Assembly: GCA_963707025.1 (NCBI GenBank)
Contig: CAVPOM010000006.1
Span: 128,001-192,000 of the forward strand
Direction: 5' to 3'
DNA: 64,000 nucleotides
From: an uncultured Verrucomicrobiae bacterium
Lineage (GTDB): Bacteria; Verrucomicrobiota; Verrucomicrobiia; Limisphaerales; Palsa-1400
Numbering within the stretch: position 1 is the first letter of the stretch; each line of letters opens with the position of its first letter. A model generated the notes under the pieces. The model searched no databases. It worked only from the letters and a program-made list of their open reading frames with translations, and was not told the DNA's origin. Position numbers and translations under genes: made by a program. Below are positions 17,301 through 45,119 of the stretch, one piece after another.

Positions 17301-18764
17301 CTACTGGATGGCCAGTTCCTGCTTGATTTTGAATTTTTCCACGCGCTTGCGCAAGGTGGCCCGCGTGATGCCCAGAAGTTTGGCGGCCTGGACCTGGTTG
17401 CCTTTGGTTTCCAACAGGGCTTGGATGATGAGTTCCCGTTCCACCGCGGGCAGAACTTTCAGTTGGCCCTCCTGGCGCGCCCATTCAAACAAGGTTCGCC
17501 CCACCGCCGCCCAGTCCAACAGGCCGCCTCCCCCCGCCGGAGCGGCCGCCTTCTCGGGCGGGGCCGGGCCGGGCTTGTCCAGTCCGGCCGCCGGGAGGCT
17601 GGAGATTTCCACCGGGAGGTCGCCCGGCAAAATAACATCGCCCTTGGCCATGACGGTGGCCCGCTGGACCACGTTCTCCAGTTCCCGCACGTTGCCCGGC
17701 CAGTGGAACCGCTCCAGCAGTTCGGCCGCCGCCGGCAGGATGGACTTGGGGGCGCGCCCCTGGGCCTGGGCGAACTTCTTTAAAAAATAGTTGACAAGCA
17801 GGGGAATGTCGTCCCGCCGCTCGCGCAGCGGGGGAATGGGCACGCGCACGACGTTGAGGCGGTAAAACAAGTCCTCGCGGAATTCGCGGGCGGCCACGGC
17901 CTGTTCCAGCGGCTTGTGCGTGGCGGCGATGACCCGCACGTCCACTTGGATGGATTGGTTGCCGCCGACCCGCTCAAAGGCGCCGGACTGGAGGACGCGC
18001 AGGATTTTGGCCTGGGTGGAGAGGGTCATGTCCCCGATCTCGTCCAGGAAAATGGTGCCGTGGTTGCACTGCTCGAATTTGCCGATGCGCTGGGCGGCGG
18101 CGCCGGTAAAAGCGCCTTTTTCGTGGCCGAACAATTCGCTTTCCAGCAAGTTTTCCGGGATGGCGGCGCAGTTGATGGCCAGGAAAGTCTGGGCGTTGCG
18201 CTGGCTGTGATGATAAATGGCGCGCGACACCAGTTCCTTGCCCGTGCCGCTTTCCCCGGTGATCAGCGCGGTGGCGTCGCTCCCGGCCAGTTGCCCGATG
18301 ATTTTGAAGACGTTCTGCATCCTTTCGCTGCGCCCGATGATCCCCAAATCGTAATCCTCCGATTCGAGCAACGGCTGGTAGGAAACGACCTGGCGCATGT
18401 CGCGGGCGGCCTTGAGGGCGTCCAGGACAACCTGCTTGAGCCGGGGCACATCGAAGGGTTTGAGCAGATAATCGTAAGCGCCCAACTTCATCGCCTCGAT
18501 GGCGGTCTGGGTGGTGCCGTAGGCCGTCATCATGATGACCATTTGTTTGGCGTCCATCTGGCGGAGGCGGCGGAGGGTTTCCAGGCCGCTCATCCCGCCC
18601 ATGCGCACGTCCATGATGACCAGGTCTGGTTTGAGGCGGGGGATGAGCTTCAACCCCTCCTCCCCGCTGTCCGCCGTGGTCAACTGGATTTCCGGCTGGT
18701 CAAAAATGCGGCGGAACGAGTATTGCACGTCCGCTTCGTCATCAATTAAAAGGAGCTTGTCCAT
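17301..18764 (-). CDS. Sigma54-dependent response regulator (NtrC family: REC-AAA+-Fis HTH)
   Basis: MDKLLLIDDE, GESGTGKE, GAFTGA, WPGNVRELEN, C-terminal AAKLLGITRATLRKR. Confidence 0.95.
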   Translation of the reverse strand: MDKLLLIDDEADVQYSFRRIFDQPEIQLTTADSGEEGLKLIPRLKPDLVIMDVRMGGMSGLETLRRLRQMDAKQMVIMMTAYGTTQTAIEAMKLGAYDYLLKPFDVPRLKQVVLDALKAARDMRQVVSYQPLLESEDYDLGIIGRSERMQNVFKIIGQLAGSDATALITGESGTGKELVSRAIYHHSQRNAQTFLAINCAAIPENLLESELFGHEKGAFTGAAAQRIGKFEQCNHGTIFLDEIGDMTLSTQAKILRVLQSGAFERVGGNQSIQVDVRVIAATHKPLEQAVAAREFREDLFYRLNVVRVPIPPLRERRDDIPLLVNYFLKKFAQAQGRAPKSILPAAAELLERFHWPGNVRELENVVQRATVMAKGDVILPGDLPVEISSLPAAGLDKPGPAPPEKAAAPAGGGGLLDWAAVGRTLFEWARQEGQLKVLPAVERELIIQALLETKGNQVQAAKLLGITRATLRKRVEKFKIKQELAIQ

Positions 18765-18787
18765 GTTCACGCGCCCGCAGCATAACC
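18628..18787. repeat. 160-bp direct repeat, copy 1 (5' end of the intact response regulator gene)
   Basis: Nearly identical to 20080..20239 (about 2 mismatches by eye). Confidence 0.95.
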
Positions 18788-18794
18788 CAAAGTA

Positions 18795-19290
18795 ATGCAA
18801 AATGAAGAATGAAAATTGCAGAAGGAAAAGGGCGCACGGAGTGCTGGGGTGGCGGAGCAAAGTCTAAAGGCTGAAGGCTGAAGGCTAAAAGTTGGGACAA
18901 GGATGTGTGGAGTGATGGAGTAATGGGCCCGAAACTTCAAAAAAACACCTTGATTCACCTTGATTGGGCTTGATTGAGCTTGCTTGGAAAAGCCTGATTT
19001 AGTGTGTAAATTGTTCATGGACAGGCATTTGGATTGAATTGCCGCCAAAATGCGCAAAAGCCGCAAAAGAAGGCATTGTTGCAGGCGGATGAGAACGGAA
19101 AATAACACGATTAGACACGAACGAGCACCATTGGGACGGGGATGAATTGCCGCGAGAGGGCGCAAAAGAACGCAAAAGGAACGACCCCCTCCTACGAGGC
19201 GAAGACCATAGGGCTCCTTTTTCTTCGCAGGCCGTTTTACTTGGATTGACTTGGATGGATTTGGATTGGGCCGGATTGGATTCACCTGAC
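18795..19290. repeat. Patchwork of short 7-10 bp tandem repeats
   Basis: AAGGCTG x3 near 18867; CTTGATT/CTTGCTT with 10-bp period at 18949-18985; TTGGAT with 10-bp period at 19241-19287; AAAATG(C/A) units near 18795. Confidence 0.7.
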
Positions 19291-19513
19291 CGGCACCGAT
19301 CTTGAACGTTACAGATGGATGCTCCTTTTGGTGGAGGCTGGGCGAACGATAAACCGTCGGAGTCCCGGATTGGTTCCGCGCGCCGCCTGACCTTTGTGGC
19401 CTTGCCCTCATTTCTGAGGAAAGATTAGTTGATAAGCCGGATTCTGTCAAAGGAAAAGCAAAAGTCCTGATTTACAAGTTGCCTGGCGGGCTGAGCCGCG
19501 CTAGATTTTTGCC

Positions 19514-19705
19514 ATGAGTGCCATCGAAGTCATTGCTGAAATCAAGGCTCTGCCGGACCACGAACGGGATCGTGTGCTGGGTTTTCTGATAGCCGACGCC
19601 GAATTGCGCGAAGACTTGCAGGACAGCATGGTGATAGAGTCCCGACGCCATGAGCCGAGCCGGCCGCTCGCGGACGTGTTGAACGACCTCGATATCAAGG
19701 TGTGA
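19514..19705 (+). CDS. Putative antitoxin of the RelE toxin
   Basis: 63-aa acidic ORF (LREDLQDSMVIESRRHEPSRPLADVL) overlapping the start of the RelE gene (GTGA). Confidence 0.7.
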   Translation: MSAIEVIAEIKALPDHERDRVLGFLIADAELREDLQDSMVIESRRHEPSRPLADVLNDLDIKV

Positions 19706-19954
19706 GCTTCCGCGTTGCAGTCCGCGGCTCCGCCGAGAAGGAGCTCGGCCGTCTTTCAACCCAGGCCCGCCGGCGCATTGCCAGGGCTTTGCTTGTTGGG
19801 AGAGCAGCCGCTCCCTCCTGGGGTGAGGAAATTGAAAGGCTCGGAGGGTTACCGCATTCGGGTGGGTGATTACCGCGTCCTCTACACGATTGACACACAA
19901 AATAGCGAGGTTTCCGTTTTTGCCATCGGTCACAGAAAAGACGTTTACCGTTGA
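19702..19954 (+). pseudogene. relE: RelE/ParE family toxin, frameshifted near 19794
   Basis: MSFRVAVRGSAEKELGRL...RIARALL, then a shift to LGEQPLPPGVRKLKGSEGYRIRVGDYRVLYTID...IGHRKDVYR. Confidence 0.85.
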
Positions 19955-20079
19955 ACGCGCAACACCGTTTGTGGTGGTGATTGCCGGAAACCGCCTAAAA
20001 ATGAACCAAACTATGCGTGAAATCTTTCCCCTTCCCTTTCCTCAATATGCGATTATGCGGGACCCCTCTGGCTTCTTGC

Positions 20080-20239
20080 GGTTTGAGGCGGGGGATGAGC
20101 TTCAACCCCTCCTCCCCGCTGTCCGCCGTGGTCAACTGGATTTCCGGCTGGTCAAAAATGCGGCGGAACGAGTATTGCACATCCGCTTCGTCATCAATTA
20201 AAAGGAGCTTTTCCATGTTCACGCGCCCGCAGCATAACC
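20080..20239 (-). pseudogene. Orphan 5' fragment of the response regulator (direct repeat copy 2)
   Basis: Encodes MEKLLLIDDEADVQYSFRRIFDQPEIQLTTADSGEEGLKLIPRLKP from ATG 20216, after which homology stops. Confidence 0.92.
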
Positions 20240-20283
20240 GGGTGCAAGGCAAAATGAAGAATGAAAAATAACACGGTTGGGCC

Positions 20284-21507
20284 TCAAGGCTCCGGCAGGA
20301 GGCGGCGGGCGTGGAGCAGGGATCTGAGGTGGGGGCGGTCGGCCAACGGGGAGGCAGGGTCCAGGCTGCTGATATGCACCGTCCCAAAGGACTGGATGAA
20401 GAGCTTGTCTTGCAGGTAAATTGCGGTGTGCGTGATCCGCTCGGGACCGGTCCCGCCGGCGGCACGGCCAAAGAAAAGCAGGTCGCCTTTTTTCAGGGAT
20501 TTCAAATCGCCATCCAGCAGCACTTCCACGCCCTGGCGGCATTGCTCGCCGGCGTCGCGATTCAAATCCATGCCGTTAATATAATACACCAGCCTGGTGA
20601 AGCCGGAGCAATCCAGGCCGCGCCAGGAAATGCCGCCCCAGAGGTAAGGCAGGCCCAAGTAAAGCCGGGCCGTGCGTTCGATGTTTTCCGCCGTGAGATG
20701 GCGTTGGGCCAGCCAGGCCGCGTAATCCACCGCCGCGGTTTTGGGCAGCCAGCCGGGCCGTCCGTCCGGCAACTCGACCTTGAACCAATCCCCCTCTGTG
20801 GCCACGCGCTTGACCAAATCGCACTGCACGACATCCGACACCGGCGGCGTGTTGGTGGAAGGTTCCTGCACAATCTGTGCCTCCAACACGGTGACGATCA
20901 ACAGGGGCGCGGCCTTCCAGGCCTCGGCTTGCTCTTTGGTGCAGGGGGTGAAGGAACCCCCGTCGGACCAACTGAGATAGTCGTCGGCGGTCTGGACAAG
21001 GTACCAGTTGGGTCGCCCGTTGGGTGGCGCGTTGGTTTGCATTTTCCACAGACGGAGAACGGTTCCCATAAATGCTTGTGTTGCCATGTCCCGTGAGTTT
21101 TCAGCAAAAGGCCGCACACGCAGGTTGACCAGGCTCCGGGTCGCAAGACCCCAGACGCGCCCGCCCAAAACCGCCTCCGGCAGCACCGTGATGCGGTCGG
21201 TGACATCGCACCCCGCCGCTTGCACCGCGGCCAACGCCGCTTCCTTGGCGGTCGGGCTGTCCACGTCGCCTTGCAAGATGACGGTGTTCCCGTCCTGCCG
21301 GGCATTGACCTGGAAAATGGCCATTTTGGTGTCCGGGGCGAACTTCTCCTGGACGCGCCGCAAAGCGTCCAGCGCGGCTTGGAAGCCAGTGGCATTGGCA
21401 AGGTCCCGGGCGTCCTGCGTTTTCTGGGCGGCGCAACGGGGGGCGAGCAGGTTCACCGAGGCGATGGCCAGCGCCAGGCACGCGGCGTTCCAGGCAACAG
21501 TTTTCAT
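20284..21507 (-). CDS. NlpC/P60 (C40) peptidase with BON-like and SH3-like domains
   Basis: Signal peptide; PYLWGG...GLDCSGF; LKKGDLLFFG; ITHTAIY. Confidence 0.9.
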   Translation of the reverse strand: MKTVAWNAACLALAIASVNLLAPRCAAQKTQDARDLANATGFQAALDALRRVQEKFAPDTKMAIFQVNARQDGNTVILQGDVDSPTAKEAALAAVQAAGCDVTDRITVLPEAVLGGRVWGLATRSLVNLRVRPFAENSRDMATQAFMGTVLRLWKMQTNAPPNGRPNWYLVQTADDYLSWSDGGSFTPCTKEQAEAWKAAPLLIVTVLEAQIVQEPSTNTPPVSDVVQCDLVKRVATEGDWFKVELPDGRPGWLPKTAAVDYAAWLAQRHLTAENIERTARLYLGLPYLWGGISWRGLDCSGFTRLVYYINGMDLNRDAGEQCRQGVEVLLDGDLKSLKKGDLLFFGRAAGGTGPERITHTAIYLQDKLFIQSFGTVHISSLDPASPLADRPHLRSLLHARRLLPEP

Positions 21508-21550
21508 ATTCACATCAAGAGCTTATCGGTAAATCATGTTGTCGCAGGCT

Positions 21551-21663
21551 CATCATTCTTCCGCCGTGACGGTCTGGGCGTGGGTGACTTTTCGAGGTGT
21601 TGTTTCTTCTTCAGGCCGAGATACACGATGCCGCCGGCCAGACTCCCAAAAAGGGTGCCGGCG
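21551..21663 (-). pseudogene. Orphan diverged 3' end of the LPG-synthase-TM gene (copy of 22486..22599)
   Basis: About 85% identity by manual alignment, including the GAA GAA TGA end; one 1-bp deletion; mostly synonymous differences. Confidence 0.9.
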
Positions 21664-21681
21664 ATTCCTCTGTATGCCGCG

Positions 21682-22143
21682 TCAGGATCTCGCGGACAGA
21701 AGCTGTCCCGCGTGCATCACCACGCGCTCGCAAATGCCGTCGAAGACGGGCTTTTGTTCGCGGCACCAGGCGAAAATCTCGGCTGCCCGCGCGCCGGCAT
21801 AGTCATGAGCTATCATGTTGCGCACGTCCTTCATTTCCCGCAATTCCTCTCCGCGAGCCACCACCCCGCGCTTTTCGGCGCGATGGATAACATCCAGGAG
21901 CGAGCCTTGGGGATGCAATTCCATCCGGTCCAAACCGCGGAGAACCTTGTTGACGAGCAAATCCACCGACCGGGCAAAACGGCCGGTGAACGCCTCGGCG
22001 CTTTCCAATTGCTGCTCGCTCGCGCCTTGCAAAGTAGCCGGCAATCCGGCGATCTGCCGGCAGGAAAAGTCCAGATGCCGGCGGGCGCTGGCCAATTCCG
22101 CCAGGGCCTGTTCGAGCAGGCTGCGTGCCTGATCTGGTTTCAT
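21682..22143 (-). CDS. HEPN-domain toxin (MNT-HEPN pair)
   Basis: RxxxxH motif RNMIAHDY; overlaps the upstream MNT gene. Confidence 0.85.
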   Translation of the reverse strand: MKPDQARSLLEQALAELASARRHLDFSCRQIAGLPATLQGASEQQLESAEAFTGRFARSVDLLVNKVLRGLDRMELHPQGSLLDVIHRAEKRGVVARGEELREMKDVRNMIAHDYAGARAAEIFAWCREQKPVFDGICERVVMHAGQLLSARS

Positions 22144-22427
22144 AATTTGACTCCCGTTTCCCGCGCCGTGGCCGCCAGCGGCTCGTTCATTTGATCGCGG
22201 CGCCGCACCACCAAGTCCAGTTGTTGCCAGCCGATGCGATCCAGAATCCGGGTGCGCAACCGCAGCACCTCGCGGAAACCCAATGTTTCCGAGATGACCA
22301 GCAGGTCAACATCACCACCGCGCGCCGTGTCATCCACACGCGAACCGTAAAGATAGACCTCGGCCTTGGGGTCCAGCCGCCCAATCTCCTCGCGAATCGC
22401 GGTAATCTCATTCGCCGTCAGTCTCAT
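22140..22427 (-). CDS. Minimal nucleotidyltransferase (MNT) antitoxin
   Basis: VYLYGSRVDDTARGGDVDLLV (GS-x10-DxD motif), 95 aa. Confidence 0.9.
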   Translation of the reverse strand: MRLTANEITAIREEIGRLDPKAEVYLYGSRVDDTARGGDVDLLVISETLGFREVLRLRTRILDRIGWQQLDLVVRRRDQMNEPLAATARETGVKL

Positions 22428-22487
22428 GCCGGCACTGTCTCAAAAAACCTCTGATCCGTCAAACCGGATGTAAATCTCATGCTTCCA

Positions 22488-23597
22488 TCATTCTTCCGCC
22501 GCAACGGTTTCAGCATGGGTCACTTCTTCCAGATGTTGTTTCTTTTTCAGGCCGAGATAAACCAGGCCGCCGGCCAGACTCCAAAAAAGGCTGCCCGCGT
22601 AGGCGAGCAGGGAAAGGGACAGGGCGGTGTTTTTGGGGACGCCGATTTCGGGCACGGCCAGCATCAGGACGAAGAGATTTTCGCGCACGCCCAGGCCGCT
22701 GGGGGTGATGGGCAGGGCGGAGATGCAAAAGATCATGGGCACGATGACCAGCCAGGCCGGGGAGGAAACCCGCGCGCCCAGCCCGGCGGACAACACCATC
22801 ATTTGCAGCACGCAGGCGGCGTTGACCAGCAGGGAAAGAGCCAGCGTTTTCCGCAAAAATCCCCGGCTCTGGCCAAAGTGACGGCAGGAATCGAGGGAGC
22901 GTTCCAGAAAATCGCCCTTGGGGAATTTCCGCAACCAATGGCGCGCGCGGGGAAAGCGTTTGGACAGGCCGCCCCAGAACGCCACGCCCAGCACCGCGCT
23001 GGCCCCGCCCAGCATCAGCAGGATGAGCAAGGCGGGCGCGCCCAGTTGCCGGTGTCGCCGGAGCAGGGCGGCGTTGGGAATCATCATCAGGGCGGCGAAA
23101 AGGAGCATGGCCCAGAGGCCGAGCAGCCGGTCCACAAACACGGTGACGACCGCCTCGGTTTTCTTGTGGTGCGTTTCGCGCGCGGCGTAAAGGGCCTTGA
23201 TAACGTCCCCGCCGGTGGAGCCGAGGAGGAAGGCATTGAAAAACTGGGCCACGAAAGTAATGCCGGTGGCGCGGCCCCACGGCAGAGGCAGGCCCTGCAC
23301 CCCCAACACCAGGCGCCAGCGGGCCACCCCCAGCAGGATTGTCAATAATACGCAGAGCAGGGAACCGGCCAGGGCCAGGGGCTGGACCGTGCTGAGGGTG
23401 TGCCAGAGCTCGCGCGGGCCGGTGGTCCAGGCCATGTGCCATTGCTGCAGACGGGTGAGATCGTTCCAAGCGCGGCCCTGGGCTTCCACCAACGCCCTGC
23501 CCTCGCTCAGGAAAATGGATTGAAAAATCCAGGCCAGCAGAAAGGCGCACAGCGCCACCCGCCAACCGACGCGCCAGGCAGATTTGAGTCCCCTCAT
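22488..23597 (-). CDS. Lysylphosphatidylglycerol synthase TM-domain (flippase-like) membrane protein
   Basis: Multi-TM; RW..L, FFNAFLLGSTGGDVIK, VFVDRLLG, ALPITPSGLGVRE. Confidence 0.88.
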   Translation of the reverse strand: MRGLKSAWRVGWRVALCAFLLAWIFQSIFLSEGRALVEAQGRAWNDLTRLQQWHMAWTTGPRELWHTLSTVQPLALAGSLLCVLLTILLGVARWRLVLGVQGLPLPWGRATGITFVAQFFNAFLLGSTGGDVIKALYAARETHHKKTEAVVTVFVDRLLGLWAMLLFAALMMIPNAALLRRHRQLGAPALLILLMLGGASAVLGVAFWGGLSKRFPRARHWLRKFPKGDFLERSLDSCRHFGQSRGFLRKTLALSLLVNAACVLQMMVLSAGLGARVSSPAWLVIVPMIFCISALPITPSGLGVRENLFVLMLAVPEIGVPKNTALSLSLLAYAGSLFWSLAGGLVYLGLKKKQHLEEVTHAETVAAEE

Positions 23598-24508
23598 TCC
23601 GCACCCCAAAGCTGCTTGATGTGGGCCACGCCCGCCCGGGCCTCTTCCTCGGTCAGGCTCGGGCTGAACTCGAAGACTTTGATGTGCTCCGGCTTGACCG
23701 ACCGTTTGAGCGCGGCAAAATCAATCATGCCCTGGCCCGGCGCGCGATGGTCGCGGGCTGGAAATTCGACATCATGGACATGGAAGCCGAGCAGGCGCCC
23801 GGCCAGCGATTCCAGGTGCATGACATGGGAAATGAAACCCAGGTTCTCCTTGATTTGGGCGTGGCCGGTGTCGTGCCAATAGCCCACGCCCGGCCGGTTG
23901 AATTCGCGCAGGAGAAACGCCAAATCGTCTTCCAGGGGGATTTCCTCCAGGGCGGCGCGGTTTTCGATGCCCAATTTGAGGCCGCGCCTCTCGGCTTCCG
24001 CGGCCAGACGCCCCAGCATTTCCTCGGCGAGGTCCACCGACTCGATTTTTTTCGCTTCGCGCTTTTCCATCAGCTCGGCGCAGAGCTTTTCGTATTTGGG
24101 CGTTCCCTTTTGCCCGTCCTGGGCCATGACCGCGAGTTTGTCGGTGTATTGCTTCATCTCGATTTCGCCCAGGTGCAGGACGACGACCCCGGCCTGGACG
24201 CGGGCGGCGGTTTCGATGGTTTTCAGGGTGTGCCGCCAGGCGTTTTCGCGCTCGCGGGGGTTGGCGGAGGAGAACTTGTAAAGATTGGGGGCGGCATGTT
24301 GGACGCCCATGGGGAGGGGACAAAAATTATGCAGCGAGGAGATTTTCATCTCGCCGGCGTCCACCGCCTCGAGGATGCCGGGGAGCAAACCGACGCGGAT
24401 GCCGTGGCTGAGTTCCGCGCGGTCAAAGCCCAGGGCATGAATTTCGCGCAGCAGGGCGCGTCCGTCGGTATGGCGGTGGGAATTCCAGCAAGTCGAAAAT
24501 GAATACAT
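23594..24508 (-). CDS. Sugar phosphate isomerase/epimerase (xylose isomerase-like TIM barrel)
   Basis: SSLHN, LGIENR, WHDTGHA, FHVHD, GQGMIDF metal-binding motifs. Confidence 0.85.
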   Translation of the reverse strand: MYSFSTCWNSHRHTDGRALLREIHALGFDRAELSHGIRVGLLPGILEAVDAGEMKISSLHNFCPLPMGVQHAAPNLYKFSSANPRERENAWRHTLKTIETAARVQAGVVVLHLGEIEMKQYTDKLAVMAQDGQKGTPKYEKLCAELMEKREAKKIESVDLAEEMLGRLAAEAERRGLKLGIENRAALEEIPLEDDLAFLLREFNRPGVGYWHDTGHAQIKENLGFISHVMHLESLAGRLLGFHVHDVEFPARDHRAPGQGMIDFAALKRSVKPEHIKVFEFSPSLTEEEARAGVAHIKQLWGAE

Positions 24509-32253: not shown

Positions 32254-34458
<2,205 letters not shown>

Positions 34459-34790: not shown

Positions 34791-35840
34791 ATGCAAGCAA
34801 AAGTCTTCGCAAGTCTGCTCGCGTTGGTTTTCGCCCCCGGATGTTCGTCCATCCGGGTGCAGCCCGCAGCCTCCGCCCGCCACCTCAAGGCTTCCCCGCA
34901 AACCATCGTCTGGGGCCGCTACGACGCCAAGGCCCCGCCCGTCTTGCGCGTCAAATCCGGCGACACCGTGGAAGTGGAGACGCTCATCACCTCCAGCCCC
35001 GCCAGCCTGGAGCGCGCCGGCGTTCCGGCCGATGAAGTCGAGCAATCCCTGCGCGACATCACCGCCACCGTCACCAATAAAGGGCCGGGCGGCCACATTC
35101 TCACCGGCCCCATTTATATCGAGGACGCGCAGCCGGGCGACGCGCTCGAGGTGCGCATCCTTTCCATCAAGCTGGCCATCCCCTATGCCTACAATGCCTT
35201 CGGTCCCACCGGCGGCTTTTTGCCCGAGGATTTTCGCCGGTCCAAAATGAAAATCATTCCTCTGGACCGCGAGAAGATGGTGGCCCATTTCACCAACGGA
35301 ATTGATATTCCGCTCAAGCCGTTCTTCGGCAGCATGGGGGTGGCTCCGGAAGAATCCGTCGGCCGCCTCAGCAGCGTCCAGCCCACCACCAATGCCGGCA
35401 ACCTCGACAACAAGGAACTGGTCGCCGGCGCCTCGCTCTTCATTCCCGTTTTCTCCCCCGGCGCGCTTTTTGAAGTGGGCGACGGCCACGCCGGCCAGGG
35501 CAACGGCGAAGTGGACATCACCGCCCTGGAAACGTCGCTCGTCGGCACCTTGCAATTTGTCTTGCACAAAGGCATGCGCCTGGCCTGGCCGCGCGCCGAA
35601 ACTCCCACCCACTACATCAGCATGGGCACCGACAAGGACCTGACCGCCGCCACCAAAATCGCCGTCCGCGAAATGATCGCCTTTCTCGTCGCCGAGAAGC
35701 ACATGGCGCGCGAAGACGCCTACATGCTTTGCAGCGTGGCCGGCGACGTGGATATTACGCAATTGGTGGACGGCAACAAAGGCGTCCACATGATGCTGCC
35801 CAAGGCGATTTTTCCACCGGAAAAAAAGCCCGGACAATAA
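34791..35840 (+). CDS. Acetamidase/formamidase family protein with signal peptide
   Basis: HILTGPIYIEDAQPGD, PFFGSMGVAP, GNLDNK, GDGHAGQGNGEV. Confidence 0.9.
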   Translation: MQAKVFASLLALVFAPGCSSIRVQPAASARHLKASPQTIVWGRYDAKAPPVLRVKSGDTVEVETLITSSPASLERAGVPADEVEQSLRDITATVTNKGPGGHILTGPIYIEDAQPGDALEVRILSIKLAIPYAYNAFGPTGGFLPEDFRRSKMKIIPLDREKMVAHFTNGIDIPLKPFFGSMGVAPEESVGRLSSVQPTTNAGNLDNKELVAGASLFIPVFSPGALFEVGDGHAGQGNGEVDITALETSLVGTLQFVLHKGMRLAWPRAETPTHYISMGTDKDLTAATKIAVREMIAFLVAEKHMAREDAYMLCSVAGDVDITQLVDGNKGVHMMLPKAIFPPEKKPGQ

Positions 35841-35974
35841 CGGACCGGCACAATAACTCCGGACAGATCGAAGTTTTCCGGGTGGCGAATTGAGGAACGC
35901 GGCTGCAAAGGCGGGCCATTGTTTCAATGGAGTTCGCCGTTGCTCATGCTCTAATTCCGGGTTAGGTTTCTTGC

Positions 35975-36208
35975 ATGAAAACGGTTACGAAACAGGAAGC
36001 GGCTCAAGGGTTCGACATGATTGGCGGTCTGGCGCATGCTGGCGAAACGGTCGTCGTCACCTACGGTGGCAAACCGTGGATCAAACTTGTACCGGCTCTC
36101 ACGGCTAAGAAGGGCAAGTCCGCCGCTGCCTTTAAGGCCCGCCTCAACCGCATCTCCGCCAAGCCAATCCCCGGGGCTTCCGAAGTGCTCTCGCGGCTTC
36201 GTGGGTGA
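35975..36208 (+). CDS. Phd/YefM-family antitoxin
   Basis: MKTVTKQEA...GETVVVTYGGKPWIKLVP; overlaps a PIN toxin gene. Confidence 0.85.
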   Translation: MKTVTKQEAAQGFDMIGGLAHAGETVVVTYGGKPWIKLVPALTAKKGKSAAAFKARLNRISAKPIPGASEVLSRLRG

Positions 36209-36648
36209 AAACCTACTTTGATACTTCCTGTCTGGTGCCCCTTTACGTGCCCAACGACCACACCAGCGCCGCTCTGCGCCTCCGGGCGCGGACGGGCCGG
36301 CAGCCCATCATTTTCACACTCCTGCACCGGATTGAGTTGCGGACGACGGTGCGCCAATGCGCCTTCGGCGGCTTGATCAACCAAGCCGAGGCTCGTCAAA
36401 TCCTGCGGCACATCGAGGAAGATTTGCACGATGGAACATTAATTCATGAGCCGCTGGACTGGACCGAAACATTGCGTCGGGCCGAAACGGTGGCGGACCG
36501 GTCGGCTTGGACGAAGCGATGCCGCTCACTTGACCTGTGGCATGTGGCGGTCGCCTTGGAATTTCATGCCGAGGTTTTCGTGACTTTCGACAAGGACCAA
36601 TTCGCCTTGGCCGAGGCGGAGGGGTTGCAGGTCATAATGCCATCCTGA
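36205..36648 (+). CDS. vapC: VapC-family PIN toxin
   Basis: YFDTSCLV, E, RSLDLWHVAVA, FVTFDKDQ acidic PIN tetrad. Confidence 0.9.
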   Translation: MKTYFDTSCLVPLYVPNDHTSAALRLRARTGRQPIIFTLLHRIELRTTVRQCAFGGLINQAEARQILRHIEEDLHDGTLIHEPLDWTETLRRAETVADRSAWTKRCRSLDLWHVAVALEFHAEVFVTFDKDQFALAEAEGLQVIMPS

Positions 36649-36672
36649 AATCGCCCGACCATGCTGGCGCAA

Positions 36673-36761
36673 GGCAACGAAGGCGTCCCCATGATGCTGC
36701 CCAAGGCAATATTCCCGCTCGAAAACAAGGCCGGCCTAATGAAGGGCCGTCATAATAACTC
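36673..36761 (+). pseudogene. Orphan diverged 3' end of the acetamidase gene (copy of 35772..35859)
   Basis: GNEGVPMMLPKAIFPLENKAG versus GNKGVHMMLPKAIFPPEKKPG; shared downstream AATAACTC. Confidence 0.85.
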
Positions 36762-36834
36762 GGTAGGGCGAGACTCCAGCCGTGACTCAATCCCATGAAA
36801 TCGAGTCAGGGGCTCGACAGAGTCTCGCCCTGCC
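36762..36834. repeat. GTAG-type REP-like hairpin
   Basis: GGTAGGGCGAGACTC ... GAGTCTCGCCCTGCC inverted repeat. Confidence 0.7.
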
Positions 36835-36851
36835 TCGGTTGAAAGCTTCGA

Positions 36852-38509: not shown

Positions 38510-38626
38510 ATCTAAGAACAACAATGCACCGGAAGAGCCGCGAAGTCAAAGCCCAATGGCCCTGTTCTCATTCTCCCTGGTCTGCCCTGGCTTTAGCGCC
38601 GGCGGAATTTTCGTTTTTCTGAACCG

Positions 38627-41600
38627 CTACTGCGGCCCGCCATTCGGCTCCCCGCGCTTTTCCCAGCGCCTGGCGGCGCGCTCGGGCAACGCGCCATCCA
38701 CCTTGGCGTAATAGGTCTCTTCGCCAAACTTTTCATCCACCGCTTCTTGCAAACTCAGCGACGGGCTGACCGCATACCGGTCGTTGGTCTCGATGAAAAC
38801 GACCTCGCCCCCGGTCCGCATCAGGCACAGAAACACCGGGCATTTGCCCGGATGGGCGGCGAGCAGATCGCGCGCCGCCTCCAAATCGCCCGGCGTCACC
38901 TTGGCGCTGTGCAAGCGCAGGTGGACCTGTTTGGTGTAGGCGCGCGGCGCGTCCTCCAGCGCGATGATTTCCTGCGGGAAAATCTTCGGCTTGTCCTCGG
39001 AAAGATTGACCTCCCCGGTGACGAGGAGCGGCTTGTTCGGCGCCAGCAGCTCCTTGAACTTCTCGTAATTCTCGTTCAGGCAAAGCACCTGCACCGAGCC
39101 GGACATGTCCTCCAGCGTGGCCAGGGCGTAGGGCTTGTTGCTCTTCTTGGAAATGCCCTTTTGCACCGCGCCCACCAGGCCGCCGATGCGCGTCATCTCC
39201 CGGTTCTTCAATTCCCCCAACTGGCCGGACTGGTGCAGCGCATACTTCCTTAAAATGGACTCAAACGGCGTGAGCGGATGGCCGGTCACGTAAAAACCGA
39301 GCAATTCCTTCTCGTGCGCCAGCAATTCATGCTGCGGCCATTCCGCCAGTTGTTTTTCCGGCTCCGGCTTCCCCCCCGCCTCCTCGCGCAGCATCCCAAA
39401 AAGCGTGTCCTGCCCGCGGTTGCGGTCCTGGATGACCCCGGCCGCCCGGGTCAGGGCCCGGTCCATCCTGGAGAACAGGGTGGCGCGCGTTTCGCCGAAG
39501 CCATCGCACGCGCCGGACTTGATCAGCGCCTCCAAACCTTTCCTGTTGACAGTCCGTCCGTCCACCCGTTCGCAAAGATCGGCCAGGGAGGTGAACTTCC
39601 CGGCCTTGGCCCGCGCCTCCAGGATGCCCTCCACCGCCGCTTCGCCGATGCCCTTGACCGCGGCCAGGCCGAAACGAATCGCCGTCGCCGCTCCCCCCGC
39701 CGGCCCCGCCGCGCTGGGCGTAAAATAAACCCCGCTCTCATTGATGTCCGGCTGGAGCACTTCGATGTGGAAATGGCGCGCTTCCCCGATGAGGATGCCC
39801 AGTTTGGCCGTGTCGCCCAGGTCGTTGGTCATCATCGCGCTGAGAAATTCCACCGGATAATTGGCCTTCAGCCAGGCGGTCTGGTAGGCCACCATGGCGT
39901 AGGCGGCGGCGTGGGACTTGTTGAAGCCGTAGCCGGCGAATTTTTCCAGCAAATCAAAAATCTGGTTGGCCTTGGCCGCCGGAATATGGTTGACCTTGGC
40001 GCAGCCTTTGACAAAGACCTCGCGCTGCTTGGCCATTTCCTCCGGCTTCTTTTTGCCCATGGCCCGCCGCAGCAGGTCCGCTCCCCCCAGCGTGTAACCC
40101 GCCAGCACCTGGGCCGCCTGCATGACCTGCTCCTGGTAAATCAGCACCCCGTAAGTCTCCCGGGTGATCGGCTCCAGCAGCGGATGCTCGTACTCGATTT
40201 TGATTTCCCCGTGCCGCCGCTTGATGAAATCGGGAATCAGGTCCATCGGCCCGGGCCGGTACAAGGCCACCAGCGCGGTGATGTGCTCCAGCGAACTGAT
40301 TTGAAAGCGCCGGCACAAATCGCGCATCCCGCCCGATTCCAGTTGGAAGATGCCGATGGTGTTGGCCTTGTTGAGCAGGTCGTAGGTCTTGGGGTCGTCG
40401 AGCGGCAAATGGTCAATCGGAATCTCCACTCCCTTGAACTGCCGCACCAGGTCGCAGGTGTTGCGGATGACCGTCAGCGTTTTCAACCCCAGGAAATCCA
40501 TCTTCAGCAGGCCTAGGTCCCCCACCGGCCCCATGGCGTATTGCGTGACGATGGCCCCGTCCTCGTCCTTCTTCAGCGGCAGCAGGTTGGCCAGCGGCTG
40601 GTCGCCGATGACCACCCCGGCGGCGTGGACCGAGGCGTTGCGCGTCAAGTCCTCCAGCACAAAGGCCGTGTCCACCAATTCGCGCGTCTGGCCCTCCTTC
40701 TCATAGGCCTGCTTGAACTCGGGTGAGGTTTCCAGCGCCTTTTTCAGCGTCATCTTCAACTCGTTGGGAATCATTTTGGCCAGCCGGTCGCATTCCCCAT
40801 AGCTCAAGCCCATCACCCGCCCCACGTCGCGGATGACCGACTTGGCCCCCATCGTGCCGAAGGTGATGATCTGCGCCACCGAGTCCCGCCCGTATTTTTG
40901 CCGCACATATTCAATCACATCGCCGCGGCGGTCGTCGGCAAAATCAATGTCAATATCCGGCGGGTTGACCCGTTCGGGATTGAGAAAACGTTCAAAGAGC
41001 AATCCGTAACGGATCGGATCCACATTGGATATTTCCAACAAATAAGTCACGATGGCGCCGGCCGCCGAGCCGCGCGCCACGCAGGTCACCCCTTTGCTCC
41101 GGCCATAACGGACGAAATCCCCCGTGATCAGGAAGTAGCTGATGAAATCGGTTTTTTCGATGACTTTGAGTTCCGCTTGCAGACGGTCCATGACCGCTTT
41201 GACGGCCGCCGCCACTTCGGGATTGCGGATGGTGGATTGGGGATGGCCGATTGACGGATTTGTGGTTTCCACCTTGGAAACGGTTTGGGAGCCGTCGCGG
41301 ATTTCCGGCGGCGCGGCGGGCGGGTGATAAGTGGGCAGCTTGGTTGGGTCTTCGATGCCGTCCACCAGGAATTGATCCCCCTCGGCGCGGGCGTGGATGG
41401 TGTAGCGCGCGCGCAAGCCTTCGGCCAGCCATTGGCGCAGGTAAGCCTCGCGGCTGGTATTTCCCGGCGGATGAAACAGTGGATAATGCAGCTTGTTGAA
41501 CTCGATCTCCACATTGCACTTTTCCGCCACCTCCAGGGTGTTGCGCGCCGCCTCCGGCACCTCGGCGAAGCGCGCCTTCATTTCCTCCGCCGAACGCAAA

Positions 41601-42346
41601 TAAAACTGCTCCCGCTCAAAGCGCATCCGCTTGCTGTCGCTCAAGAGCGATTGCGTGCCGATGCAGATCAGGCAGTCGTGCGCGTGCCAGTCCTCCTTGG
41701 CGATGTAATGCACGTCGTTGGTCGCCACCAGCTTCAAGCCGAATTCCCCGGCCCACGCCATCAATTGCCGGTTGACCTTGACCTGGTCGTTGATGCCGTG
41801 ATTTTGCAATTCCAAGTAAAAATTCTCCGCCCCCACGGTCTGCTTGAACCAATCAATCGTGTCCCGGGCCTTGGCAAGCTGGTCTTGGACGATCAATTCG
41901 GGGATTTCGCTGGCCAGGCAGCCGGAAAGGAAAATCAGCCCCTCCTTGTGCGCCGCCAGGATTTCCTTGTCCACGCGCGGCTTGTAATAGTACCCCTCCA
42001 AATGCGCCTTGGTCACCAGTTTGACCAGATTGCGGTAGCCGGTTTCATCCCTGGCCAGCGCGCCCAGATGATGATAAACATCGCGGCCGCCGCCGCCGCC
42101 CGATTTTTTTTCCAGGCGGCTGCCCGGCGCCACATACAGTTCGCAGCCGATGATCGGCTTGATACCGTTTTCCCGCGCCGCCTGGTAAAAATCAATGGCC
42201 CCGTAGAGCACGCCGTGATCGGTGATGGCCAGCGACTGGAATTTGAGTTCGCGCGCCTTGTCCATCAACCGGTCCAGGCGGCAGGCTCCGTCGAGCAGGG
42301 AATACTCGGTGTGCAAATGCAGATGAACAAAATCGGCGTGCGCCAT
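38627..42346 (-). CDS. dnaE: DNA polymerase III subunit alpha, with a lineage-specific insertion
   Basis: FVHLHLHTEYSLLDG, RGSAAG, PDIDIDF, LLKMDFLGLKTLT, YGFNKSHAAAY, OB fold. Confidence 0.97.
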   Translation of the reverse strand: MAHADFVHLHLHTEYSLLDGACRLDRLMDKARELKFQSLAITDHGVLYGAIDFYQAARENGIKPIIGCELYVAPGSRLEKKSGGGGGRDVYHHLGALARDETGYRNLVKLVTKAHLEGYYYKPRVDKEILAAHKEGLIFLSGCLASEIPELIVQDQLAKARDTIDWFKQTVGAENFYLELQNHGINDQVKVNRQLMAWAGEFGLKLVATNDVHYIAKEDWHAHDCLICIGTQSLLSDSKRMRFEREQFYLRSAEEMKARFAEVPEAARNTLEVAEKCNVEIEFNKLHYPLFHPPGNTSREAYLRQWLAEGLRARYTIHARAEGDQFLVDGIEDPTKLPTYHPPAAPPEIRDGSQTVSKVETTNPSIGHPQSTIRNPEVAAAVKAVMDRLQAELKVIEKTDFISYFLITGDFVRYGRSKGVTCVARGSAAGAIVTYLLEISNVDPIRYGLLFERFLNPERVNPPDIDIDFADDRRGDVIEYVRQKYGRDSVAQIITFGTMGAKSVIRDVGRVMGLSYGECDRLAKMIPNELKMTLKKALETSPEFKQAYEKEGQTRELVDTAFVLEDLTRNASVHAAGVVIGDQPLANLLPLKKDEDGAIVTQYAMGPVGDLGLLKMDFLGLKTLTVIRNTCDLVRQFKGVEIPIDHLPLDDPKTYDLLNKANTIGIFQLESGGMRDLCRRFQISSLEHITALVALYRPGPMDLIPDFIKRRHGEIKIEYEHPLLEPITRETYGVLIYQEQVMQAAQVLAGYTLGGADLLRRAMGKKKPEEMAKQREVFVKGCAKVNHIPAAKANQIFDLLEKFAGYGFNKSHAAAYAMVAYQTAWLKANYPVEFLSAMMTNDLGDTAKLGILIGEARHFHIEVLQPDINESGVYFTPSAAGPAGGAATAIRFGLAAVKGIGEAAVEGILEARAKAGKFTSLADLCERVDGRTVNRKGLEALIKSGACDGFGETRATLFSRMDRALTRAAGVIQDRNRGQDTLFGMLREEAGGKPEPEKQLAEWPQHELLAHEKELLGFYVTGHPLTPFESILRKYALHQSGQLGELKNREMTRIGGLVGAVQKGISKKSNKPYALATLEDMSGSVQVLCLNENYEKFKELLAPNKPLLVTGEVNLSEDKPKIFPQEIIALEDAPRAYTKQVHLRLHSAKVTPGDLEAARDLLAAHPGKCPVFLCLMRTGGEVVFIETNDRYAVSPSLSLQEAVDEKFGEETYYAKVDGALPERAARRWEKRGEPNGGPQ

Positions 42347-42473
42347 GCCCATAACTTAACGCCCGGCCGCGAGCTTCGGCAAGCCCAACGGCGGCCGGCC
42401 GGCGCGGGCGCCATTGAGGGCTTGCCAGCGCGGGGCGGCGGGAGTATGACCTGTGCAAGACAACAAGGAAGCC

Positions 42474-42764
42474 ATGAGCACGATTAAACGCATTTCAGCC
42501 CCCAGGCCCGCCCGGCGCCCCCTCGGGCCGCGCACCCTTTTCGCCCTGCTCCTGACCGCCGCCGCGCTCTGCGCTTGCGCCCGTTACGACATGACCCTGA
42601 CCAATGGAGGAAGCGTGACCAATGTCCCCAAGCCAACGCGGAGCAAGGATGGCAGTTATTGGTCTTTTGTCACCGCCGGCGGAAAAACCAACGTCATCCC
42701 CGCCAGCCGTGTCCTCAATGTTTATCGGCACGGGGACACCAACTGGATGTTCGGCAAGCAGTAG
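42474..42764 (+). CDS. Small lipoprotein (YgdI/YgdR-like)
   Basis: Basic N-terminus, hydrophobic stretch, lipobox LCAC, then YDMTLTNG...KP. Confidence 0.6.
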   Translation: MSTIKRISAPRPARRPLGPRTLFALLLTAAALCACARYDMTLTNGGSVTNVPKPTRSKDGSYWSFVTAGGKTNVIPASRVLNVYRHGDTNWMFGKQ

Positions 42765-43356
42765 CGACAAAGCGCTCCACATATTTGCCCAGCAGATCGG
42801 CCTCCAAATTGACCTCGTCGCCGGTCCGCCGCTCGCGCAACGCCGTCACCGCCAGGGTGTGCGGGATAATCCAGATTCGAAAACTTTTCGCCCGCACCCC
42901 CGCGACCGTCAGGCTGATGCCGTCCACCGCCACGGAGCCTTTGAGGATGATGTAACGCATGATCTCCGGCGGCGCGCTGATGTCCAGCACATGGTCCCGG
43001 CCAGACCGTTCCCAGCGGATGATTTTTCCCACCCCGTCAATGTGGCCGGTGACAAAATGGCCGTCCATCCGTCCGCCGGCGCGAACCGCGCGCTCCAGAT
43101 TGACGGCCGCTCCGGGGTGAAGGGCGTGAAAGTTGGTGCATTGCCAGGTCTGGGCCAGCAGGTCAAATTGCAGCAGCCGGTCGCGTCCGCGCCCGCTCGT
43201 TTTCGCCACCGTCAGGCAGCAGCCATTGACGGCCAGGCTCCCGCCCGCCTTCATCCCGCGCCCGCATGCCCGCGAGCGCACGACCAGGTGGATCGCACTC
43301 TCGTCCGGCGCGATGGATTGCACGCGGCCGCTTTCTTCGACAATTCCAGTGAACAT
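42715..43356 (-). CDS. ribE: Riboflavin synthase (alpha chain)
   Basis: MFTGIVEE, SLAVNGCCLTV, GHFVTGHIDG, KGSVAVDGISLTV, VNLEAD. Confidence 0.96.
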   Translation of the reverse strand: MFTGIVEESGRVQSIAPDESAIHLVVRSRACGRGMKAGGSLAVNGCCLTVAKTSGRGRDRLLQFDLLAQTWQCTNFHALHPGAAVNLERAVRAGGRMDGHFVTGHIDGVGKIIRWERSGRDHVLDISAPPEIMRYIILKGSVAVDGISLTVAGVRAKSFRIWIIPHTLAVTALRERRTGDEVNLEADLLGKYVERFVATACRTSSWCPRADKH

Positions 43357-43371
43357 GGGTTGCTCCGGTGA

Positions 43372-44478
43372 TTATTCTGGCTCCTGCACGCGGGCGATCA
43401 ACATCAAATCGCCGCCGGCCCGCCGCCATTGCGCCTGGCGCAGGGTGATTTTGCCGCCGGGAGTCAGAGCGGCGTCCCCCGCCACCGCCGTGGGCGCGCG
43501 GCGGCCGCCCAGGATGAGGGGCGCGTAGAAGAACACCACCCGCTGGCACAGCGGCGCCCACAGGGCGTTGGTCTCGCCGCCCCCTTCCACCAGGAGGCTG
43601 GTGACGTTTTCCCGGCCCAGGGTTTTGAGCAGCCAGGGCAGATCAATCCGGCCGCGCCGGGCGGGCGCCACCAGCACGCGCACCCGCCGGCGCAAGGCGG
43701 CCACCCGTTTGGGCGGGGCCGATTTGATGACGACTATCGTAGTCAAAGGCGCGGAGGCGCCGCTTAAAATCCCGGCCGTCAGGGGAGTCCGCCCGCGCGG
43801 ATCCAGCACCAGCCGGCGCAGCGCCCGGCCGGCCAAACCGGGGGGGCGGGCGGTCAGGGCGGGATCGTCCACTAATATAGTATTGACTCCGACCAGGACC
43901 GCGTCCGCGCCGGCGCGCAGCTTCATGGCCAGGGCGCGGGCCGGCGCGCTGGTGATCCATTTGGATTCCCCGGTGACGGTGGCGATTTTTCCGTCCAGGG
44001 ACATGGCGGCCTTGACCGTGACAAACGGGGTGCGGCGCACGATCCAATGGTTGAAGGCTTCATTGAGCCGGGCGCATTCGCCGGCCAGGAGGCCGCGCGC
44101 CAGGGAAAGGCCGGCGCGCCGGAGAATGCGGAAGCCCCGTCCGGCGTGGCGGGGATTGGGATCGGTCGCGCCGGCCACCACCCGCCGGATGCCGGCGGCG
44201 ATGATCGCGGCCGTGCAGGGCGGGGTGCGGCCCTGCGTGCAACAAGGTTCCAGCGTGACGTAAAGGGTGGCGCCTTTGGCGTTGTGTCCGGCGCTTTGCG
44301 CGTCGCGGATGGCTTCGATTTCCGCGTGCGGCTGGCCCGCGCCCCGATGCCAGCCCCGGCCGATGATCTTGCCGCCCTTGACCAGCACCGCGCCGACCAT
44401 GGGATTGGGCGAAGTCCGTCCATAAGCCCGGCGCGCCAGCCGCAGGGCCAGACGCATCAATTTAGGATTCGTGAACAC
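43372..44478 (-). CDS. ribD: Bifunctional riboflavin biosynthesis deaminase/reductase
   Basis: PNPMVGAV, HAE, VTLEPC...TPPC, SLDGKIA, SKWIT, VEGGG. Confidence 0.96.
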   Translation of the reverse strand: MFTNPKLMRLALRLARRAYGRTSPNPMVGAVLVKGGKIIGRGWHRGAGQPHAEIEAIRDAQSAGHNAKGATLYVTLEPCCTQGRTPPCTAAIIAAGIRRVVAGATDPNPRHAGRGFRILRRAGLSLARGLLAGECARLNEAFNHWIVRRTPFVTVKAAMSLDGKIATVTGESKWITSAPARALAMKLRAGADAVLVGVNTILVDDPALTARPPGLAGRALRRLVLDPRGRTPLTAGILSGASAPLTTIVVIKSAPPKRVAALRRRVRVLVAPARRGRIDLPWLLKTLGRENVTSLLVEGGGETNALWAPLCQRVVFFYAPLILGGRRAPTAVAGDAALTPGGKITLRQAQWRRAGGDLMLIARVQEPE

Positions 44479-44516
44479 CCGCTGGCGAACTTCATTGCCA
44501 TGAAGCCCGGATCAAA

Positions 44517-44810
44517 TCAAGCCGAGGCCGGTTCCCTTTTGCGTTTCCAGGCCTTTTCGGTGTATCTCCGGGCTTCGTGCGCCCCGCGCAACAGACAGGC
44601 AGAACTGATATCGCAGTCCAGTTTTGGCCAATGAACCGAGGAGTGGCAAATCTCATAGGCCGCGCGTTCCTTGGGCGTCGCCAGCAGGAGCGTTGGATAA
44701 AATGCCAGTGGCACGCTTACAGAACGTCCGTCCTCCAGCTCGAAGGTCAGCCGTTGGTTGGTGATGCGAACCGCCGTGACATCCGGCGGCGGAGTGTTAT
44801 TCAGTTTCAT
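44517..44810 (-). CDS. DUF2442-domain protein (putative TA partner)
   Basis: LEDGRSVSVPLAFYPTLLLAT...HWPKLDCDIS. Confidence 0.85.
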   Translation of the reverse strand: MKLNNTPPPDVTAVRITNQRLTFELEDGRSVSVPLAFYPTLLLATPKERAAYEICHSSVHWPKLDCDISSACLLRGAHEARRYTEKAWKRKREPASA

Positions 44811-45027
44811 CCCAAGCTCTCAATAATCTGGTTTCATGCCGTCGTAATATCCGCGCGATTTCCCGAAGTTCCGCTTCGCGAAACCCCTTGTTCCAACTTA
44901 ACTGCACCGGCGCGAGCCAGAATTTTGCCTCGCCGCCGCTTTTGTGAACGTGAACGTGGGCCGGTTCATCAGGTTCCGAACTGTAAAACCCAATGCGATA
45001 CCCTTTCTCTCGCAAAATCGTCGGCAC
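44797..45027 (-). CDS. DUF4160-domain protein (putative TA partner)
   Basis: MPTILREKGYRIGFYSSE..EPAHVHV...AKFWL. Confidence 0.88.
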   Translation of the reverse strand: MPTILREKGYRIGFYSSEPDEPAHVHVHKSGGEAKFWLAPVQLSWNKGFREAELREIARILRRHETRLLRAWDETE

Positions 45028-45060
45028 TTTGGAAGGTTAAACCATAATTCTTCCCCTGAC

Positions 45061-45119
45061 AAGACCCGTCGCGCCCCCCACCGCGCCAACCAGGGGCAGA
45101 GGCAGGCCAATTTGGAGGA
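45061..45119 (-). pseudogene. Degenerate orphan copy of the ribD 5' end (44412..44467)
   Basis: AAGACCCGTC..CGCGCCAACC--AGGGGCAGAGGCA..CAATTTGGAGGA versus AAGT-CCGTC..CGCGCCAGCCGCAGGGCCAGACGCA.CAATTT--AGGA. Confidence 0.5.

Follow-up and report, generated by a model that had tools for sequence, protein, structure and literature searches.

The window analysed here is a stretch of 64,000 nucleotides (G000:C6:128001-192000) from the genome of an uncultured Verrucomicrobiae bacterium, G000, which comprises 6.96 Mb in 18 contigs and is 88% complete. Within it, small toxin–antitoxin (TA) cassettes lie between the end of an intact host gene and an orphan direct copy of that same end. Repeat pairs were found by self-BLASTn of the window and cargo families were assigned by Pfam; genes were called with our own hexamer model, which missed some atypical short genes. 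The comparison set consists of five congeners (G001–G005), and metagenome contigs and fetched loci carry L-numbers. The features concerned, including open reading frames (ORFs), are as follows.

17301..18764, minus strand: NtrC-like sigma-54 response regulator gene, intact, host of case 1 (Pfam; start from the gene model)
18628..18815, minus: NtrC 5′ end, working copy, with 51 bp upstream (self-BLASTn)
18908..19085, unstranded: multicopy non-coding element within insert 1 (17 genomic places)
19514..19705, plus: 63-aa ORF overlapping the RelE start, likely antitoxin (ORF list; without Pfam match)
19702..19954, plus: RelE/ParE toxin gene, frameshift-split (PF05016 on the 3′ part)
20045..20067, plus: 23-bp motif near the orphan joint, likely the relic end of a Y1/RAYT-like transposase gene
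20080..20267, minus: orphan NtrC 5′ end, with 2 coding differences from the working copy (self-BLASTn)
20284..21513, minus: NlpC/P60 gene, middle of the block between both orphans (Pfam)
21551..21663, minus: orphan LPG-synthase 3′ end (self-BLASTn)
21682..22143, minus: HEPN (HepT-like) toxin (Pfam)
22140..22427, minus: MNT antitoxin (Pfam)
22486..22599, minus: LPG-synthase 3′ end, working copy (self-BLASTn)
22488..23558, minus: LPG-synthase/flippase-like gene, intact, host of case 2 (Pfam)
34857..35840, plus: acetamidase/formamidase gene, intact, host of case 3 (Pfam, gene model)
35764..35859, plus: acetamidase 3′ end, working copy (self-BLASTn)
35975..36208, plus: Phd/YefM-like antitoxin (weak Pfam match, E 0.008)
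36205..36648, plus: VapC (PIN) toxin (Pfam)
36665..36761, plus: orphan acetamidase 3′ end (self-BLASTn)
36762..36835, unstranded: multicopy palindromic element abutting the acetamidase orphan (30 genomic places)
43372..44457, minus: ribD, intact (Pfam, gene model)
44517..45027, minus: DUF4160-DUF2442 pair, at the same site in G001 and G003 (Pfam)
45061..45119, minus: claimed ribD orphan, unsupported (random-segment test)

A preliminary description of this DNA proposed four cases of duplicated ends, of which self-BLASTn recovers the first three. In case 1 the 5′ end of the NtrC-like regulator gene is repeated over 188 bp at 95.7% identity (18628-18815/20080-20267, E 1e-82), which is longer than first claimed. 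Case 2 repeats the 3′ end of the LPG-synthase/flippase-like gene over 114 bp at 85.1% (21551-21663/22486-22599, E 6e-29), and case 3 that of the acetamidase gene over 97 bp at 79.4% (35764-35859/36665-36761, E 6e-16). In cases 1–3, but not in case 4, repeats of 97–188 bp enclose inserts of 0.8–1.3 kb, and the three repeat pairs have 2 genomic copies each. The fourth case, a ribD end (44412-44467/45061-45119), is absent from the self-BLASTn output and lies near chance level: its local score is equalled by 1.2% of 2000 random 400-nt segments and by 1.9% of 1500 random 200-nt segments. In G003 and G001, both of which have the DUF4160-DUF2442 pair, the corresponding region gives no match to their own ribD (p 0.43 and 0.56). 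The TA cargo named at the outset is confirmed by Pfam throughout, as ParE/RelE, MNT with HepT, Phd (weakly) with PIN, and DUF4160 with DUF2442.

The first two cases occupy a single slot. Its order in G000 is the LPG-synthase gene, the MNT/HEPN pair, a block composed of an LPG-synthase end, the NlpC/P60 gene and an NtrC start, then the RelE pair and the NtrC gene. This one block of 1.58 kb has the case 1 orphan at one tip and the case 2 orphan at the other; the two cases are thus not independent slots, and may stem from one event or from two. No DNA match to the NlpC/P60 gene is listed in the five congeners. The orphan LPG-synthase end carries 16 substitutions, 11 of them synonymous, and one 1-bp gap, and the sequence nearest to it is the orphan of G003 described below. 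The multicopy element at 18908..19085 is part of insert 1 and lies upstream of NtrC in G003-type strains too. The split in the RelE gene marks either a pseudogene or an assembly indel.

Case 3 has a counterpart in G003 (L074, G003:C164:120-1900), where the Phd-VapC pair and the acetamidase orphan are kept and the acetamidase gene is not at the site; the sequence in its place appears aquaporin-like. The joint between VapBC and the orphan is found again in G003, as well as in contigs from two independent read runs. No empty allele of case 3 was found among relatives.

As originally described, none of the four inserts contains an integrase or transposase ORF, and no inverted match brackets an insert in the window self-BLASTn, so that the arrangement of a transposon or miniature inverted-repeat transposable element is not seen. 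Insert 1 does hold the multicopy element and the relic resembling the end of a Y1 transposase gene. Two further TA loci of the window, DUF433-DUF5615 and MazE-VapC, have no host-gene-end orphan, and none lies behind dnaE for the former. Rfam gave 0 matches in the window and a BrnT search likewise 0. Four-helix-bundle genes were considered as carriers and rejected, 0 of 7 being bracketed.

Gene-end repeats across the genome and in relatives

The association between TA genes and duplicated ends extends beyond the window. Hits to TA families from a hidden Markov model search of the genome (n=64: 30 PIN, 3 DUF2442, 11 DUF433, 15 ParE and 5 MNT) were examined for a direct repeat of at least 50 bits within 1.5 kb on either side of the gene, with 300 small and 300 larger random genes and 349 compositionally atypical genes as controls. 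Such repeats bracket 14/64 TA hits, against 7/300 small and 6/300 larger random genes and 20/349 atypical genes. When bracketed loci were sorted by hand, the repeat was a host gene end in 7/64 TA hits (6 distinct pairs), against 5/349 atypical genes (p 7e-4) and 3/600 random genes (p 5e-6), and the comparison of TA with control loci suggested at the outset thus came out in favour of the association.

With any cargo, 41 of the 51 low-copy gene-end repeats lie on the gene-preserving side (41 against 10, p 1.5e-5), a count that leaves out 15 internal matches and retains some tandem paralogs on both sides. Repeat lengths are continuous, from 38 to 347 bp. A recombinase gene occurs within 5 kb at 1/39 loci, where it is itself the duplicated gene, and no motif is common to the joints, 1/39 of which lies near a Y1 relic. 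The host genes include argG, comM and those for a ParA-like ATPase, UvrD, an E2 acyltransferase and carbonic anhydrase. Cargo was annotated in 36 hand-picked gene-end candidates, made up of 33 inserts from 32 fetched loci and the 3 window cases. A Pfam TA family is present in 9 of the 36, and the non-TA cargo comprises a DNA methylase, a YhcG nuclease, ORF6N, an IS630 transposase, unrelated genes or no ORF. Since the majority of these candidates hold non-TA cargo or are empty of genes, the process is a general one with an enrichment of TA modules, and not specific to them as was first supposed.

One locus (L038, G000:C7:287955-290532) contains a DNA methylase gene, a probable nuclease gene and a helix–turn–helix gene between 100-bp repeats that cover two convergent gene ends, and is a classical restriction–modification (RM) instance of the gene-end-repeat pattern. 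At L063-L070, unique intergenic repeats bracket DinD, HicA with a methylase, DUF4926-DUF6883 and VapBC cassettes.

Empty alleles, which the preliminary description had asked to be compared, are present in relatives. In G005 and in many of 80 metagenome loci the LPG-synthase gene is directly followed by NtrC, which is the empty allele of the slot of cases 1 and 2. Empty alleles with the ancestral neighbour just past the orphan are seen for argG (in G003) and for the ETF-QO 3′ end and the carbonic anhydrase 5′ end (both in G002), and synteny past the orphan also holds for the ParA-like gene. The LPG-synthase orphan occurs in 2/30 genome loci (G000 and G003). Among 58 metagenome LPG-synthase loci with at least 1 kb downstream, 1 was flagged, by a 29-bp match at chance level.

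With almost unchanged boundaries, the MNT-HEPN pair is found at different genes in G002, G003 and G004, and a MazF pair at another gene in G005, all without the window's host ends; self-comparison beside these relocated cassettes gives at most a weak 40-bp repeat. Because they sit elsewhere without the window's ends, the cassette carries no fixed gene end, contrary to the idea that a TA module travels with a host terminus. A VapBC insertion at the ETF-QO gene is common to G000 and G003, with repeats that are 86% identical in one and 100% identical, over 56 bp, in G003. Repeat identity is therefore not an age clock, and the age series read from the window repeats falls away. In G000 the ETF-QO orphan keeps ancestral residues and the working end is divergent. 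At L040 (G000:C7:389028-389070) and L208, the ETF-QO orphan is a 17-codon ORF with a stop codon that overlaps the start of the next gene, and this ORF may preserve translational coupling.

Orphan 5′ ends of comM are stacked, with TA and other cargo between them, at G000:C4:793269-808061 (L049, L195) and at L232 and L235. The closest comM relatives of G000 are labelled Verrucomicrobiota, several of them Limisphaerales. In G000 the stack includes five orphan 5′ ends of 87–222 bp that are 80–99% identical; one lies behind RelBE and four form an inverted cluster 10 kb away, beside an IS3, with DUF433-DUF5615 and a VapBC-like pair between the inverted orphans. Among related comM loci with enough flank, 5′ orphans occur in 5/62, up to five in a row and some with MazF/VapBC, and 3′ orphans in 2/67. 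Two species share the sequence after the comM joint, RelBE has the same comM breakpoint in G000 and G001, and the comM and ETF-QO structures both recur in congeners. Similarly, two orphans of the start of a DUF58 gene accompany ParE pairs in G000, and the corresponding stack in G002 is longer.

Several other features of the window may be recorded here. A 36-bp stretch behind MazE-VapC (57422-57457) has a 97% match to the 3′ end of the MazF-like toxin gene of G003, and this orphan toxin end has no partner nearby. A multicopy non-coding element (56489-56547, 16 genomic places) adjoins a TA locus and may be compared with those at 36762-36835 and 18908-19085. Two DDE transposase elements (58320-59572 and 62612-63865) are 99.9% identical and, with an IS3-type element (60468-61724), surround a broken KAP NTPase gene. 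The catalase-peroxidase gene (katG, 32254-34443) is split across three frames, and the splits in katG, RelE and YhcG may reflect assembly indels.

Origin of the second gene end

The LPG-synthase gene of G003 carries an independent insertion, with 259-bp repeats at 91% identity and a two-gene cargo, the second gene of which is MazF-like (ESM Atlas 0.96) with no Pfam match; the single-sequence fold of this toxin is of low confidence (predicted local distance difference test 52). In two metagenome contigs (L091 and L092) the working LPG-synthase end is identical to that of G003 (0 differences) and no orphan is present. Their cargo differs from that of G003 at 8 sites in ~666 bp and by a 4-bp gap, and is followed by other DNA and then NtrC; L091 is 99.4% identical to G003 on the LPG-synthase side and 98.1% on the NtrC side. 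Orphan and working end of G003 have 22 coding differences, 17 of them synonymous (p 0.003 against the fresh-duplicate expectation), and the distance between them is as large as that between G000 and G003. At positions where the working end is derived, the orphan has the bases found in other species. On these sequence comparisons the two copies are demonstrably alleles of different lineages, and not a decayed fresh duplicate. The illegitimate joint of this insertion, the one case with both parents, has a 3-bp overlap (microhomology), and the block has a 93-bp duplication at its other tip. The simplest reading would be that the TA pair and the working end are resident in G003 and that the orphan arrived with foreign downstream DNA, which is the reverse of the single polarity, with the TA module always incoming, that was first assumed.

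A further contig, L093, is identical to G003 upstream, switches to the orphan within a 68-bp identical block and is without the cargo; it is either a deletion product or an assembly collapse. As a hybrid of both copies it was dropped as proof that the orphan is the recipient's old end. In the conspecific-like contig L092 (positions 1-1070), identity with G003 goes from ~88% to near 100% at the LPG-synthase gene start, a switch that points to large imports of divergent DNA.

Homology-anchored import with one illegitimate joint and no recombinase is considered the probable, though far from assured, origin of the duplicated ends. The homology-driven single crossover or illegitimate recombination of the preliminary description survives in it to the extent that gene-end homology is found together with a non-homologous joint and no dedicated recombinase nearby. 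TA cassettes are observed in variable slots between conserved genes, and change slots without a fixed host end. A fragment covering a gene end and the neighbouring slot would then enter the cell, probably by transformation. One joint would form by homology and the other illegitimately through a few matching bases, as seen at the joint in G003, either directly or after the trimmed fragment has circularized and undergone a single crossover. The product would be gene end, cargo and second gene end, in which either copy could be the incoming one. The gene-preserving geometry would arise because the host gene stays intact only when the duplication covers its start or stop codon. TA modules would be over-represented as short, self-contained units that kill the cells from which they are lost, whether the loss comes about through recombination that deletes one repeat with the cargo or through a clean exchange of alleles, and are likely to be kept by addiction. 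Orphans subsequently decay, re-homogenize or stack into arrays, all of which are seen.

Two extensions of this import model are proposed jointly, and as a pair are possible but doubtful. Addiction may shape the scar itself, in that clean replacement of a TA slot by a relative's allele would be lethal and survivors would keep the TA module, flanked on one side by the resident gene end and on the other by the tip that the incoming allele left behind. Successive rounds could in addition give integron-like, recombinase-free stacks in which each cassette is headed by a copy of the host promoter and gene start, as at comM and DUF58.

A number of observations weigh against import by this route. Changes unique to the orphans are synonymous in 32/88 cases, where 26 ± 4 are expected at random (p 0.09), so a large share of the divergence is simple decay of the kind that follows a fresh duplication. 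Silent differences could also be introduced if the working end were replaced at a later time. A foreign allele is not shown for case 1, with its two coding differences, or for the identical ETF-QO copies of G003. No conspecific strain of G000 was found, so there is no donor allele for the window's own cases, and with the three window cases set aside the TA excess becomes 4/61 against 5/349 atypical genes (p 0.03; against random genes p 0.002). Addiction may be inoperative in case 1, since its RelE gene carries a frameshift. By eye, ~11/19 comM orphans end near codon 34–36 and the others at codons 9 to 57, a clustering which hints at a preferred site. Of the competence route first suggested, the presence of uptake genes is confirmed (ComEC, DprA and comM in G000); this does not show competence, because ComEC and DprA are also present in 10/14 control genomes. 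Finally, Belot et al. (2026; PMC13617665) describe TA islets without mobile elements and without long-term stabilization of their neighbours; Photorhabdus TA systems did not conserve their chromosomal neighbourhood, and TA spread by double crossover in flanking genes is suggested there.

An unlikely but credible alternative is true target duplication, in which template switching or insertion at a staggered break would place the cargo between two copies that start out identical, after which the orphan would degenerate and ordinary homologous recombination would in time exchange the working end. Derivation of both copies from the recipient's own target is compatible with case 1, comM (222 bp at 98.6%) and the ETF-QO pair of G003 (56 bp at 100%), all near-identical pairs. 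The near-neutral changes in the orphans favour it as well, as do the imports of divergent alleles in these populations of which the L092 mosaic is an example, and it is the model behind the naming in PMC2853133. The LPG-synthase insertion of G003 weighs against it, in that the working end and cargo exist without the orphan in two near-identical strains and the orphan has the ancestral bases. A synonymous excess also stands against it: in 16 pooled pairs with congener outgroups 90/156 differences are synonymous, compared with the ceiling of 46% expected of a fresh duplicate if its working copy changes at silent positions alone (p 0.0014, computed on 155 differences after one unassignable site was dropped). 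This test replaced a first one (157/326 against 88 ± 7.5), the null of which was too lenient. Trees of the 120-nt ends are poorly resolved.

It is distinctly improbable that the cassettes are mobilized in trans, be it only at certain sites such as the start of comM, by an HUH (Y1/RAYT) transposase or a site-specific recombinase with its gene elsewhere. The motif at 20045-20067, which lies 12–13 bp from the orphan joint of case 1, is shared with a G003 joint; Y1-type end motifs are present at each of the two joints that bound the G003 block as well as at that of case 1, ten Y1 transposase matches occur in the genome, and the comM breakpoints are clustered with a joint motif common to two species. 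Against this, the target genes number in the dozens, are unrelated and share no sequence, and comM orphans outside the cluster stop at codons 9, 22, 46 and 55. The motif is found at 1/39 joints, which excludes it as a general driver, and lies at no fixed position, 6 and 12–13 bp from the joints. No recombinase match was obtained in 80 comM loci with three queries.

The motif belongs to a dispersed relic of ~110 bp with ~15 places in G000, several of them just behind TA-like genes, and this relic resembles the 3′ end of Y1/RAYT-like transposase genes. A dif/XerCD reading was rejected, since the motif has a 7-bp spacer, one arm only and ~15 dispersed copies and resembles a Y1 gene end, and so was a Tn3-type inverted-repeat reading, there being no inverted pairs. 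Viral contigs gave no exact match to it.

Self-perpetuating TA circles, which would excise between the repeats with one host end and re-integrate at the same gene elsewhere, the circle form of the preliminary proposal, are very improbable as the origin of the pattern and may well act as a secondary route. G000 and G001 do share a RelBE unit and its comM breakpoint, and L093 is the expected excision product or recipient. Such circles cannot, however, make the first duplication, these cassettes are also present at genes where nothing of the window's host ends is seen, and L093 as a recipient would need a circle with all 5 changes in the first 45/259 bp (p 1.3e-4).

An assembly or strain-chimera artefact is scarcely credible: despite the incomplete genome, its apparent frameshifts (katG, RelE), the lack of its own reads (none were found, the best run containing 0.20 of its words, and contigs from read runs were mostly of relatives, with no usable joint for cases 1 and 2) and a possible collapse of L093 across its 68-bp identical block, the copies are 79–96% identical and joined by a few bases only, the case 3 joint recurs independently and the ETF-QO and comM structures are present in congeners.

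Comparison with known systems

Integrative elements that restore the gene end they enter, such as e14 in icd, likewise leave a working and a displaced end around their cargo. They encode an integrase and use a fixed crossover. Here, in contrast, no integrase lies in or beside the element, targets are many and the inner ends vary, as at the LPG-synthase gene (114 against 259 bp), with comM, where they are partly clustered, as a partial exception. For insertion with long target duplication, Furuta and colleagues cite Nobusato et al. 2000.

The architecture is not new, being known for RM genes, which insert with long target duplication; the repeats span start or stop codons, there is a bias to competent species and the mechanism was left open (Furuta, Abe and Kobayashi, 2010; PMC2853133). 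As in that study, a putatively selfish addiction module lies in long, variable, locus-unique direct repeats with no mobility gene, a one-copy empty allele exists, the repeats are often over a start or stop codon and are enriched over average genes, and the species are mostly competent ones there. The repeats here also exceed 30 bp, are not multicopy and enclose less than 20 kb with no linked mobility gene. The cargo differs, being mostly type II/VII TA and other small genes; that of the window is TA, and one genome-wide case (L038) has a DNA methylase. Unlike the RM cases, the copies are often 79–91% identical with synonymous differences, one case is demonstrably made of two alleles, and there is no restriction cut to explain the break.

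In Escherichia coli, trimmed linear DNA that recircularizes and enters by a single crossover gives duplications of 109–950 bp, a route ten times commoner than classical homology-facilitated illegitimate recombination (HFIR) (Amarir-Bouhram et al., 2011; PMC3240628). The combination of one homologous and one illegitimate joint is the same, with 3–10 bp of microhomology in their direct route. Their system differs from the present one in its engineered plasmids, E. coli conjugation and frequency of ~4e-9, and classical HFIR gives deletions and not duplications. HFIR has also been invoked for orphan arrays at effector-immunity loci of the type VI secretion system and at rhs loci (Kirchberger et al., 2017; PMC5361080). 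In that proposal, recombination at the anchors displaces one set after another and would similarly give stacked orphans of different lineages; unlike those polymorphic toxin loci, the anchors here are housekeeping ends (argG, comM, parA-like, UvrD, E2). Chromosomal RM systems are hard to remove by allelic replacement (Handa et al., 2001, as summarized in PMC3874152). Post-segregational killing would likewise disfavour clean replacement of the module, as proposed for the polarity in G003; for RM this is a laboratory result, which is extended to the TA pairs by analogy.

A search of open-access text, without supplements, found no paper on TA modules between duplicated gene ends. The natural allele series makes testable the question of how lone TA modules enter a genome without a linked mobile element, and the orphan-free, duplicated and deleted alleles point to allele swapping between lineages. 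Orphan gene ends are, moreover, a searchable mark of recently acquired cassettes, including unannotated TA and defence genes. The pattern is a variant of a known insertion mode, the mechanism of which has been unexplained since 2000; new here are the TA enrichment, the three-allele snapshot in G003 and the stacked arrays at the comM start.

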